Source: Escherichia coli
GTDB taxonomy: Bacteria; Pseudomonadota; Gammaproteobacteria; Enterobacterales; Enterobacteriaceae
Reading direction: 5' to 3' (one strand)
NCBI RefSeq assembly: GCF_003334815.1
Contig: NZ_QOWO01000057.1
Length of the DNA stretch: 13,444 nt
Positions 1,491-4,104 of this stretch are shown here, piece by piece. Below the pieces are notes generated by a model. That model was not told the DNA's origin and ran no database searches. It was given only the letters and a program-made list of their open reading frames with translations. Numbering within the stretch: the first letter of the stretch is position 1; the number at the start of each line of letters is the position of its first letter. The translations under genes and the position numbers were made by a program.

Positions 1491-1574
1491 ATGGAAAATG
1501 AGCATCAATACAGTGGTGCCCGGTGTTCAGGGCAAGCCGCATATGTTGCTAAACGTCAGGAGTGCGCAAAATGA
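1491..1574 (+). CDS. idlP: 27-codon upstream ORF (iraD leader peptide) whose TGA stop overlaps the iraD ATG
   Basis: ATG at 1491 preceded by AAAGGGAATGGCT (GGGA/GGA motifs). Translation [27 protein letters not shown], stop TGA at 1572-1574 overlapping the iraD ATG at 1571-1573 (AAAATGATG). Too short to appear in the supplied ORF track. Matches the idlP leader peptide as I recall it from the literature. Confidence 0.7.
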
Positions 1575-1963
1575 TGCGCCAATCACGTCAGGCTGTTTTA
1601 CCTGAAATTTCAGGCAATAAAACGTCATCGCTGCGTAAATCAATATGTAGCGATCTCCTCACTCTTTTTAATTCTCCTCATTCGGCATTACCGTCATTAC
1701 TTGTTTCAGGCATGCCCGAGTGGCAAGTGCATAACCAGAGCGACAAACATCTCCAGAGCTGGTATTGCCGTCAGCTGCGTTCTGCACTGTTATTTCATGA
1801 GCCACGGATTGCGGCGTTGCAGGTCAATCTGAAAGAAGCGTACAGCCACACGCTGGCGATCAGCCTTGAGATAATGCTGTACCACGACGATGAACCGCTA
1901 ACGTTTGATCTGGTCTGGGATAATGGCGGTTGGCGTAGTGCGACCCTCGAGAATGTCAGCTAA
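1571..1963 (+). CDS. iraD: Anti-adaptor protein IraD (inhibits RssB-mediated RpoS degradation); phage gp25/GPW baseplate-like fold family
   Basis: Translation [23 protein letters not shown]...[10 protein letters not shown], 130 aa from the ATG at 1571; the track ORF begins 3 codons earlier at a GTG. Stop TAA at 1961-1963. Confidence 0.9.
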
Positions 1964-2867
1964 GTACAATCTCCAGCTCGCGCAGTTCACGCCAGAAGCG
2001 TTCGGCAACTGGATTCATGCGGGTATTCATTCGGTATGCATAGGCCTGAATCGGGATCACCAGTTCGTCCCGATTCAGTACAACGAGCTGCCCGCTGCGA
2101 ATTTCTTGTTGGATGGCGTACTCCGGCAGCCAGGCAATCCCACAGCCGTCGAGGGCAACCTGCTTTAAAAGCTCGCTCATCGAAGAGACAAAAAAGGTGC
2201 TGAAACTTAACTCACTGTGGCGCGTCAGGGTGCGATTAATCAATCGCCCCATGTAGGAGTTGCGGCTGTAATTCAGTAACGGAAAGTGTGGCTGCGCGAG
2301 GTTAAAAAGTGCTTCTCCGTGTTCGTCACTGGCGCAGACAGGGAACAATTGAGATTCAAATAAGCGAATGTGGTCAAACGGCGCTTCCAGCAAATCTTCG
2401 TCGTGAAAGGAAAAAATACAGTCACTTTGCCCTTCACGCAGTTTATCGACCGCTTCATCGACATCAATAGCTTCAATTGCCCAGGTAAAGAGCGGCGGCA
2501 TCTGGCTGATAATGGACGGTAACAGCCCGAGGGAAAGAGAGTGTGCAGCGGCTATTTTAATTTTGCGTTGCGCGTAATCGCTGCCACCACGGAGTTCTGC
2601 AAGGTTGCTCTCTAACTGTTGCAACAGATGGCGGATCTGCGAATGGAATATTTTACCTTGTTCCGAGAGTTGCAGCGGCGTCACCTGGCGGTTAAACAAT
2701 TCAACGCCAATCGCCTGTTCCAGCGCACGGATGCGGCGGCTGAATGCCGGTTGCGAGACGTTGCGACTGACTGCTGCCTGGGAAAAATTGCGGCATTTTT
2801 CCAGGGTCAGAAAATCATAAAGCCATTTAGTTTCAATATTATGCAAAACCGCACCACAGTCATCCAT
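1956..2867 (-). CDS. hypT: LysR-family transcriptional regulator HypT (hypochlorite-responsive; formerly YjiE)
   Basis: 303-aa ORF with an N-terminal LysR-type helix-turn-helix ([35 protein letters not shown]) and a C-terminal substrate-binding domain. Its 3' end overlaps the iraD 3' end by 8 nt (convergent). Confidence 0.9.
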
Positions 2868-2880
2868 TACGTTTTACTCT

Positions 2881-2925
2881 GTCAGCCGCCCTTGCGGGCA
2901 TTCTACGTCCATTCGGGCGGCTGAC
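2881..2925 (-). promoter_or_regulatory. Perfect 11-bp GC-rich inverted repeat (GTCAGCCGCCC ... GGGCGGCTGAC) with a 23-nt spacer, between the iadA stop and the hypT start
   Basis: Arms at 2881-2891 and 2915-2925 are exact reverse complements. On the minus-strand transcript it lies 3' of iadA and 14 nt 5' of the hypT ATG, and is not followed by a U-tract. Confidence 0.45.
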
Positions 2926-2931
2926 AACCGT

Positions 2932-4104
2932 TTATGCCGTTTCAAACGTTCCTTTCACGCAGGCTTTGCCGTCTTTGACCATCAGCTTGCCGCGAGCGTA
3001 TACCTGCTCAATGCGTAATTCTGGCGTCATGACCAGTAAGTCTGCGTCATTGCCTGGCAGAATTTCGCCTTTCCCGCTCAGGTTAAGGAAACCGGCTACG
3101 CTACTGGTGAGCGGGCGCAGGGCATCGCTGATACTGAAATCATAATCTTTGACCAGCACCTGCACGGTTTCCAGCAACGTTTCAAAACCGGCAACACCGA
3201 TATGGGTTAAATTCCCTTCGTCATCGAAGAACGGCTGGCTACCGTTGCCGTCGGAGCTGAGGGTGACGCGTGCCAGCGGAATACCCGCCTGAACGGCGCG
3301 GGCAATACCTTCGGCAGGGGCGACTGGTTCGTCAATGCTGCTGGTGATATCGATGGTGCCGCCTTTGCGCGCGAACTCCAGCGCCTGCTCAAACAACGGA
3401 ACGTTGCGGTTAACGTGGGTCGGCAGCAACTTGCTAATCGGCACATCGCAGTTTTCCAGCAGGTCATAGACAGGCTGTAACGCCTTTTTGCTGTCGCCCA
3501 TGTGGAACACGGTGACGCCAGGTTTACCGCCGAGCAAACCGCCAACGCGGGATTCCGCCGCCATATTAGCCAGGTGATAAACGTCCGGTGCGGCAGAACG
3601 GTGATCAGAGATGGCGCATTTCACGCCAATCACGCGATCGATAATCGCCACGTCTTTTTCCACGGAACCCGTAATAGTGCGGGAAGGGACATGATAAGCG
3701 CCGGTCAGCATCCAGGCGCTGATGCCTTCTTCATTGAGCGCACGGGTCTTGGCGAGCAGGGATTCCGGGTGGCGAGAGATAGAGTCGGTGCCCAGCAGAC
3801 CAACCACTGACGTGACGCCTGCTTCCGTCAGACGACTTAACGCCACTTCCGGCGTGCGCGTCGTGGGACCTGCTTCGCCGCCACCGCCAATCAAATGGAC
3901 GTGTTGATCAATAAAACCTGGGCAGAGGATCTGCCCGCTGAGATCGACAACCGTGCAGTCCGGTACAATGTCAGAAGGGATATTACTGGCAACGGCGATA
4001 ATTTTGCCGTTAGCGACGAGGACATCGCAAATTCCCCGATCTTCCGGCGCATACAAATGCGCTCCCTGCAGCAGGGTAAAACCGGCTGCGGTATAATCAA
4101 TCAT
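2932..4104 (-). CDS. iadA: Isoaspartyl dipeptidase IadA (metal-dependent amidohydrolase superfamily)
   Basis: 390-aa ORF MIDYTAAGFTLLQGAHLYAPEDRG... with the HxH metal-binding motif (FIDQHVHLIGGGGE). AAGGAG Shine-Dalgarno 6 nt upstream of the ATG, in the 12-nt gap after yjiG. Confidence 0.9.
   Translation of the reverse strand: MIDYTAAGFTLLQGAHLYAPEDRGICDVLVANGKIIAVASNIPSDIVPDCTVVDLSGQILCPGFIDQHVHLIGGGGEAGPTTRTPEVALSRLTEAGVTSVVGLLGTDSISRHPESLLAKTRALNEEGISAWMLTGAYHVPSRTITGSVEKDVAIIDRVIGVKCAISDHRSAAPDVYHLANMAAESRVGGLLGGKPGVTVFHMGDSKKALQPVYDLLENCDVPISKLLPTHVNRNVPLFEQALEFARKGGTIDITSSIDEPVAPAEGIARAVQAGIPLARVTLSSDGNGSQPFFDDEGNLTHIGVAGFETLLETVQVLVKDYDFSISDALRPLTSSVAGFLNLSGKGEILPGNDADLLVMTPELRIEQVYARGKLMVKDGKACVKGTFETA

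Follow-up and report, generated by a model that had tools for sequence, protein, structure and literature searches.

Why do iraD, hypT, and iadA, three genes with stress-linked annotations, lie within 2.5 kb of one another on the chromosome of Escherichia coli? The question is raised by a stretch of 13,444 nucleotides from contig NZ_QOWO01000057.1 (the window, meaning throughout the whole stretch that was analyzed), which corresponds to the chromosomal yjiC-mdtM region and is 100% identical to strain CE0021a. The initial annotation of the window identified the three genes, and NCBIfam equivalog models place all of them where it had put them (Table 1). It also suggested that the trio, if not there by coincidence, could be a co-inherited block for coping with oxidative and age-related damage. 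On balance, we favor a different answer, in which an old conserved module with HypT as its local regulator has acquired a younger neighbor, iraD, and the adjacency of the two is accidental. Each of these genes is individually well known. What is new here is a predicted operator and a predicted regulon member for a regulator of a known kind.

The genomic setting of HypT was surveyed by scanning one genome per bacterial species, which gave 73 loci that were then searched with the window proteins using tblastn. The genes yjiH, yjiG, iadA, and hypT were found in identical order and strand in six genera: Escherichia, Citrobacter, Salmonella, Pluralibacter, Entomohabitans, and Hafnia. The carriers of this block in the scan are three Escherichia lineages other than E. 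coli, the Citrobacter amalonaticus group, Salmonella enterica subsp. arizonae and diarizonae, Pluralibacter, Entomohabitans, and Hafnia paralvei. The identity of HypT across these carriers is 69–97%, with Hafnia at 69%. The genes flanking the four-gene block vary by genus while the block stays, and therefore yjiH-yjiG-iadA-hypT has been retained as a unit, within which hypT and iadA are probably co-regulated. Co-inheritance, as first proposed, is thus upheld for hypT and iadA, also outside Escherichia. It does not extend to iraD, which adjoins hypT in Escherichia only and is never its neighbor in the other genera.

In the 67 non-Escherichia HypT-family loci with readable flanks, the regulator is always adjoined by a racemase of the Asp/Glu family (67 of 68 loci when L073, described below, is disregarded; the exception is a regulator gene at a contig edge). 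Where the locus also carries yjiHG-iadA-hypT, the racemase is in every case a protein of 244 residues encoded convergently to hypT. More distant HypT-like regulators, at 43–60% identity, all adjoin the same racemase family. The racemases score 159–199 bits against TIGR00035 and 225–256 bits against NF052483 (cysteate racemase). A near-identical protein is deposited in the PDB as a putative aspartate racemase (3S7Z) and is related to the aspartate racemase of Pyrococcus (1JFL). Jo et al. (2019) took Met206 to be the hallmark of a HypT orthologue. The residue is invariant among the 73 racemase-linked members of the family, as is Met230. By the Met206 criterion, an association with a racemase therefore characterizes HypT orthologues as a class.

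The arrangement of regulator and racemase differs among clades. The regulator is divergent from a racemase-dcu pair in Providencia, Proteus, the Citrobacter freundii group, Budvicia, Leminorella, Limnobaculum, and a paralogous copy in E. albertii of the type found on the SRL island. In Pectobacterium, Dickeya, and Serratia it is divergent from the racemase and faces a convergent transporter gene of the DctA/GltP family, where the downstream gene is annotated, and Brenneria has the divergent regulator-racemase layout of Pectobacterium. In Edwardsiella, both dcu and the racemase gene are convergent on the regulator, in the order regulator, dcu, racemase. In Photobacterium, the regulator is divergent from the racemase and an iadA-like gene. 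A neighbor-joining tree rooted on Photobacterium has the form (Photobacterium,(Pectobacterium group,(Providencia/Proteus/SRL group,(HypT proper)))), or (E,(D,(C,(A,B)))) in clade letters. From the nesting of the HypT-proper clade inside the family it follows that the divergent layout of regulator and racemase is ancestral.

The universal partner of the HypT family is a racemase together with a transporter for acidic amino acids or C4-dicarboxylates, which speaks against a general damage response and makes aspartate chemistry the more likely common theme. Succinimide intermediates give rise to isoaspartyl and D-aspartyl residues alike. It is for this reason that the idea of protein ageing, which the initial annotation had drawn from iadA, can be kept in a narrow sense, as one that fits iadA and the racemase.

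Alignment of the divergent regulator-racemase spacers revealed an invariant dyad, ATGCA-N5-TGCAT, which takes the form ATGTA-N5-TGCAT in the Pectobacterium group and fits the T-N11-A rule for LysR-type regulators. The corresponding 15-bp sequence in the window, ATGCA-N5-CGCAT (ATGCAAAAAACGCAT), is located at positions 5388-5374, 116–130 nt upstream of the ATG of yjiH. With at most one mismatch allowed, the window contains two matches compared with 1.16 expected, one within yjiM and the other upstream of yjiH. Apart from the latter, no match falls in a regulatory region of the 13.4-kb window, and the number expected by chance in the 250-bp yjiH spacer is ~0.02. The strict dyad was found at the orthologous place in 14 of 14 complete or near-complete yjiH-carrying loci, across all six genera, and in 12 of these 14 it is the only match in a locus of ~12.9 kb.

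Over 72 loci (867 kb), 69 matches to the strict dyad were counted compared with ~3.3 expected, an enrichment of roughly 20-fold. Of these, 14 precede yjiH, 38 precede the racemase gene, and 14 precede a gene convergent on the regulator; 3 are unexplained. The dyads of the convergent genes lie ~100–180 bp upstream, and the genes themselves belong to the DctA/GltP family where annotated, except for a Dcu transporter gene in one locus; the others are unannotated. The dyad marks promoters beside HypT-family genes in about 50 other species. The N-terminal motif and the helix-turn-helix segment SQPAFSRRI are conserved in the HypT family, and the segment and the half-site change together: SQPAFSRRI occurs with ATGCA, and SQSSFSRRI with ATGTA. 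Three strict dyads were observed in the Citrobacter freundii group (L028, L029, and L074), near position 9385 and ~2.5 kb downstream of the regulator gene. They may represent more regulon members or chance matches.

The yjiH dyad is part of a larger promoter block. When the yjiH upstream regions of the different genera are aligned, conservation begins abruptly with CTATGCAAAAAACGCATAG-N6-AAACATACTTGCATTTTCCCC...GCTGATAAGGT, and the sequences further upstream are unrelated. The same three-part architecture was found in the racemase promoters of Citrobacter, Salmonella, Pluralibacter, Entomohabitans, and Hafnia (CTATGATTTTTACGCATAG...GGCATTTTTT...TGATAGTGT). The block at 5325-5390 is a predicted HypT-family operator. 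Classical LysR regulators have a T-N11-A recognition site near -65 and an activation site near -35. If TGATAAGGT is an extended -10 element and the start is placed accordingly, the center of the dyad would be near -63 and the TTGCAT half-site, ~25 nt further downstream, near -38, which would reproduce the classical geometry of recognition and activation sites. The locus departs from the classical type in that hypT is not divergent from its presumed target in E. coli, divergence being seen in the deeper-branching clades of the family, and in that HypT has been described as activated by methionine oxidation rather than by a metabolite. Because the LysR-type dyad is conserved upstream of yjiH, this predicted site supports the suggestion, made in the initial annotation, that HypT may regulate yjiHG-iadA.

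Table 1. Features of the E. coli window discussed in the text (positions in the window)
Feature	Position	Strand	Description and basis
idlP	1491..1574	+	Leader open reading frame, translationally coupled to iraD; RefSeq annotation of the identical strain
iraD	1571-1963	+	RpoS-stabilizing anti-adaptor; NCBIfam equivalog NF010726, 298.1 bits (cut-off 198)
hypT (yjiE/qseD)	1956-2867	-	LysR-type regulator; NF007488, 696.5 bits (cut-off 301), residues 1-303
iadA-hypT inverted repeat	2880..2926	-	Arms 2880-2891 and 2915-2926; encloses sigma70-like hypT promoter
iadA	2932-4104	-	beta-Aspartyl (isoaspartyl) dipeptidase; TIGR01975, 623.3 bits (cut-off 331.25)
yjiG	4117..4578	-	Gate-domain inner-membrane protein; NF007811; PF07670 on E. 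albertii orthologues
yjiH	4575..5258	-	Gate-domain membrane protein, first gene of the operon; annotation and PF07670 (E. albertii orthologues)
yjiH promoter block	5325..5390	-	Predicted operator: CTATGCAAAAAACGCATAG, then TTGCAT 5359-5354, then TGATAAGGT 5333-5325 (possible extended -10)

In E. coli, iadA is on the same strand as hypT, 64 bp upstream of it, and is the final gene of yjiH-yjiG-iadA. We know of no phenotype for iadA. The genes yjiHG-iadA have been cited as a transcription unit (PMC6469107, PMC3946193), and the function of YjiG was called elusive in a 2026 paper. YjiH and YjiG are a putative transporter to which no substrate is assigned, and these Gate-domain proteins are present in the window where a Dcu-family transporter is absent. 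The racemase has left no recognizable trace: a tblastn search of the window with three racemases returned only noise (all E > 0.06), and an orthologue of the HypT-linked racemase was found in 0 of 5426 complete E. coli genomes. A more distant paralogue of the SRL type, at ~70% DNA identity, is the only such racemase in 355 of the 5426.

We propose that yjiHG-iadA-hypT is probably a module for handling aspartate that includes the gene of its regulator. The module, vertically inherited in the Enterobacterales, would consist of yjiH-yjiG, iadA, and hypT, with a convergent aspartate-type racemase outside Escherichia. We infer that HypT binds ATGCA-N5-YGCAT ~63 nt upstream of the inferred yjiH start, along with the half-site near -38, and has yjiHG-iadA under its control, together with the racemase in other genera. 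YjiH and YjiG would import aspartyl compounds, IadA would hydrolyze beta-aspartyl dipeptides, and the racemase, where present, would interconvert D- and L-aspartate. Escherichia would have lost the racemase, and the slot between hypT and uxuR would have come to hold iraD and idlP. The adjacency of iraD and hypT would then be historical rather than functional.

The origin of iraD was traced by protein searches. IraD is an RssB anti-adaptor that stabilizes RpoS. Its homologues are found first in Escherichia (72–100% identity for those that align over most of the query) and then in Citrobacter at ~50%. The Citrobacter proteins are genuine TssE components encoded in complete type VI secretion system (T6SS) clusters with the order tssB-tssC-hcp-tssE-tssF-tssG-clpV-vgrG. 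Citrobacter TssE aligns with window positions 1616-1936 at 49% identity over 111 residues (tblastn, E = 6e-32), and IraD carries the Pfam domain GPW_gp25, as expected for the gp25 family to which TssE belongs. It differs from TssE in being an orphan anti-adaptor with no T6SS neighbors in the window, and its score on the TssE model TIGR03357 is 48.6 bits, below the cut-off of 53.2. Since the homologues of IraD are confined to Escherichia and, beyond it, to TssE proteins of Citrobacter T6SS clusters, iraD derives from the T6SS baseplate gene tssE, as an orphan that is restricted to Escherichia.

The slot that iraD occupies, which in other genera is taken by the racemase gene, is itself variable. 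Between hypT and uxuR, Escherichia has iraD, idlP, ytiD, and yjiC, and Salmonella has the racemase gene, an orphan hcp, and a trpS-like gene. The stop codon of idlP overlaps the start of iraD, and idlP is part of the Escherichia-specific insert, outside the conserved module. In the window, iraD and hypT are convergent and overlap by 8 bp (1956-1963); in a cryptic Escherichia lineage (L003), iraD starts ~450 bp beyond hypT. The orphan hcp of Salmonella arizonae and diarizonae (L008/L009, 7889-8509, minus strand) lies directly past the racemase gene. Its product shares 50% identity with Hcp from the Citrobacter T6SS cluster in which the closest TssE relative of IraD is encoded, and hcp and tssE are neighbors in that cluster. 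The orphan hcp of Salmonella and iraD of Escherichia, which share the uxuR-hypT slot, may descend from one T6SS fragment. No sequence remnant of such an origin was detected when the window was searched with two Hcp proteins (tblastn, all E > 0.06), and idlP and ytiD were compared with the 3' end of hcp as possible relics with no similarity found. The outlying locus L073, a 605-bp contig labelled Bacillus coahuilensis, matches E. coli at 96% in idlP, 97% in iraD, and 100% in the 3' end of hypT, and is probably contamination.

Within E. coli, the segment 1400-5300 was found at a coverage of at least 80% in 5391 of 5426 complete genomes, and the adjacency of iraD, hypT, and iadA is consequently a fixed feature of the species. 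E. coli MB64 (NZ_CP073929.1, 4108812-4109401) matches only the first 590 nt of this query, and kptA is annotated beside its iraD, which suggests that hypT-iadA-yjiG-yjiH was deleted as a single block. Besides MB64, 32 of the 5426 genomes have no match to the segment. For iraD, a response to hypochlorous acid (HOCl) can be taken from published data: in uropathogenic E. coli CFT073 exposed to 2.25 mM HOCl for 15 min, iraD (yjiD, c5405) was lowered ~5-fold (log2 fold change -2.36; PMC9600549, Table S1), and none of iadA, yjiG, and yjiH is among the rows of that table covered here.

Several observations weigh against the proposal that HypT governs an aspartate-handling module. In E. albertii (L079/L080, 7387-7531, compared with window 1956-2931), the hypT coding sequence has been cleanly deleted from between iraD and iadA, and this species still carries yjiHG-iadA with an intact yjiH dyad. 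Unrelated genes surround four distant IadA homologues (46–59% identity) that were taken from a search covering 1.8 billion representative proteins. The published HypT regulon consists of methionine, cysteine, and sulfur genes that are activated and iron-uptake genes that are repressed, and the HypT footprints at Salmonella fhuA (TTACGTTATCATTCA and AACCCTTCCTTTTCA) do not resemble the dyad. In the literature searched, no paper names HypT together with iadA, yjiG, yjiH, or an aspartate racemase. The yjiHG-iadA genes are listed in the Crl/sigma-S regulon, so other regulation of them exists. In addition, hypT is downstream of iadA, not divergent from the operon, and has a promoter-like site of its own (-35 TTGTCA at 2927-2922 and -10 TAGAAT at 2905-2900, with 10 of 12 matches in a promoter scan). 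Finally, the racemase exceeds the NCBIfam cut-off for cysteate racemase, and for that reason its substrate could be cysteate instead of aspartate.

Two of these points can be narrowed. Given the unrelated neighbors of the distant IadA homologues, a general association of iadA with the racemase or with LysR-type regulators was rejected, and the link between iadA and the regulator is specific to this clade, with the addition of Photobacterium. The E. albertii genome retrieved by the HypT scan contains an SRL-type regulator-racemase-dcu module (L047), the regulator of which might substitute for hypT in that species.

The same observations could be explained by syntenic inertia, with the genes functionally unconnected and HypT acting only on distant met, cys, and iron genes. 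The location of its published targets, the separate promoter-like site of hypT, the persistence of yjiHG-iadA in E. albertii, and the lack of an association for distant IadA homologues would all be expected if this were so. We nevertheless find it unlikely, as the four-gene order has survived in six genera despite reshuffled flanks and the yjiH promoter shares its enriched dyad with the promoters next to HypT-family genes in other species. A second possibility is that the module is real, with the dyad the site of a different regulator and HypT a passenger. The dyad that outlasts hypT in E. albertii and the dissimilar fhuA footprints are compatible with this explanation. It is made quite improbable by the finding that, over four gene layouts, a HypT-family gene is the only regulator consistently beside the dyad-bearing promoters, that in the ancestral layouts the dyad lies between the divergent regulator and racemase genes, where a LysR operator is classically expected, and that the dyad obeys T-N11-A and changes together with the recognition helix. 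NsrR was considered as the factor and provisionally rejected, because the half-sites ATGCA and TGCAT are separated by 7 nt in NsrR sites, compared with 5 nt in the dyad. The original view of iraD, hypT, and iadA as a co-inherited, co-regulated block against oxidative and age-related macromolecule damage draws on the stress-linked annotations of all three genes, their fixed adjacency in E. coli, and an indirect chain from the stabilization of RpoS by IraD to yjiHG-iadA in the Crl/sigma-S regulon, but is highly improbable given the Escherichia-only linkage and tssE kinship of iraD, its varying distance from hypT within the genus, the dropping of hypT from between iraD and iadA in E. albertii, the lowering of iraD by HOCl, and the very large size of the sigma-S regulon, in which joint membership says little.

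Among characterized systems, the aspartate-handling module that we propose is closest to one on the SRL island of Shigella flexneri, where orf7 (LysR), orf8 (aspartate racemase), and orf9 (DcuA-like) confer D-aspartate utilization (PMC6980539). The regulator of the SRL module is a HypT-family LysR protein, the copy from E. coli O104:H4 being 59% identical to HypT, its racemase is 53% identical to the hypT-adjacent racemase of Salmonella, and the same dyad is found in its divergent spacer (L047). In contrast, the hypT locus of E. coli contains yjiHG-iadA and has neither a racemase nor a Dcu transporter, and its hypT is co-directional with iadA and downstream of it rather than divergent. Since the racemase and the Dcu transporter are absent, the E. 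coli locus is not a member of the SRL D-aspartate type. The SRL-type regulator-racemase-dcu module was also found on two 4-kb contigs (L027 and L033) from metagenome-assembled genomes labelled Lachnospiraceae and Proteobacteria, which are probably mis-binned or mobile DNA. The annotation pipeline PGAP labels the SRL-island regulator hypT (E. coli O104:H4, L078 4626-5564), and in one genome the adjacent racemase is labelled "cuyB: cysteate racemase". These names blur two paralogous modules, and a cysteate substrate is asserted for the racemase clade only by name.

A second comparison is with the CuyB/CuyA pathway for cysteate degradation (PMC11193023). The likeness lies in the score of the HypT-adjacent racemase on the CuyB model and in a dicarboxylate/amino-acid:cation symporter that is found in CuyB clusters and in the Pectobacterium-group loci. 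The differences are that no CuyA sulfo-lyase was found among the annotated genes of the HypT-family loci, in which some flanking genes are unannotated, and that the sole experimental data for the HypT-adjacent racemase clade concern D-aspartate.

The hypT product of the window is the HOCl-specific transcription factor of earlier work (Gebendorfer 2012; Drazic 2013; Jo 2019). The E. coli and Salmonella proteins are activated by HOCl through methionine oxidation, and Met123, Met206, and Met230 are all present in the window protein. Met123 occurs only in HypT proper and in some members of the SRL-type clade. The published electrophoretic mobility shift assays used 6 uM HypT on 20 nM DNA, a 300-fold excess, and for this reason we do not regard a high-affinity operator as having been defined. 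In contrast to the present analysis, the literature searched contains no discussion of the genomic context of HypT, its neighboring genes, or the association of its orthologues with a racemase. The Vibrio vulnificus protein VV2_1132, published as a HypT homologue, was uninformative for this comparison: it is 30% identical, and the paper is silent on its gene context.

It is possible, if rather doubtful, that HypT is primarily not an HOCl sensor but a metabolite-responsive regulator for the salvage of aspartate, beta-aspartyl peptides, and D-aspartate (or cysteate). An acidic amino-acid ligand would occupy the conserved cavity of the regulatory domain, next to which Met206 lies, and oxidation of Met206 and Met230 by HOCl would mimic or override activation by the ligand. 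HypT would then bind with high affinity at the yjiH dyad and only secondarily, with low affinity, at the met, cys, and iron genes. If true, this would raise the interest of the locus substantially. HypT serves as the textbook case of a transcription factor that is switched on when its methionines are oxidized. The present comparison offers a 15-bp candidate for its operator, a candidate local regulon (yjiHG-iadA, together with the racemase in Salmonella), and candidate ligands or substrates in D-aspartate, beta-aspartyl dipeptides, or cysteate. It also identifies iraD, a regulator of RpoS stability, as a type VI secretion gene that has been domesticated and occurs only in Escherichia. The locus is thus a worked example of how neighbors with similar-sounding annotations may differ greatly in history.

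The 64-bp spacer between iadA and hypT is almost wholly taken up by a hairpin, with the TAGAAT -10 element of hypT in its loop and the -35 element in one arm. Comparison of Escherichia, Citrobacter, and Pluralibacter shows an invariant outer stem and compensatory changes in the inner one, and RNAfold gives -33.9 kcal/mol for a 92-nt stretch that contains the hairpin. The inverted repeat next to iadA has been kept in E. albertii despite the deletion of hypT, and we therefore take it for a stem-loop at the 3' end of iadA, overlapping the promoter of hypT, rather than for a HypT operator. The repeat was also rejected as an intrinsic terminator, having no U-tract and not being called in the scan. 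A scan of the window against Rfam at gathering thresholds returned zero known RNA families. A short hairpin, CCAGGAATTTTCCTGG (window 5300-5315, minus strand), lies directly downstream of the predicted -10 element of yjiH. At the same place in L003-L014, the other genera differ in sequence and still pair; 4 of the 6 predicted pairs are compensatory, with a weak covariation term.

In strain CE0021a, two copies of IS1 bracket the whole window (window 1-22 and 13423-13444; L001 2325-3022 and 16423-17120). Past mdtM, this strain has IS1, frameshifted brnT and brnA, and then yjiA. In K-12, the region past mdtM is the hsd-mcr-mrr "immigration control" region, which appears to have been replaced in CE0021a.

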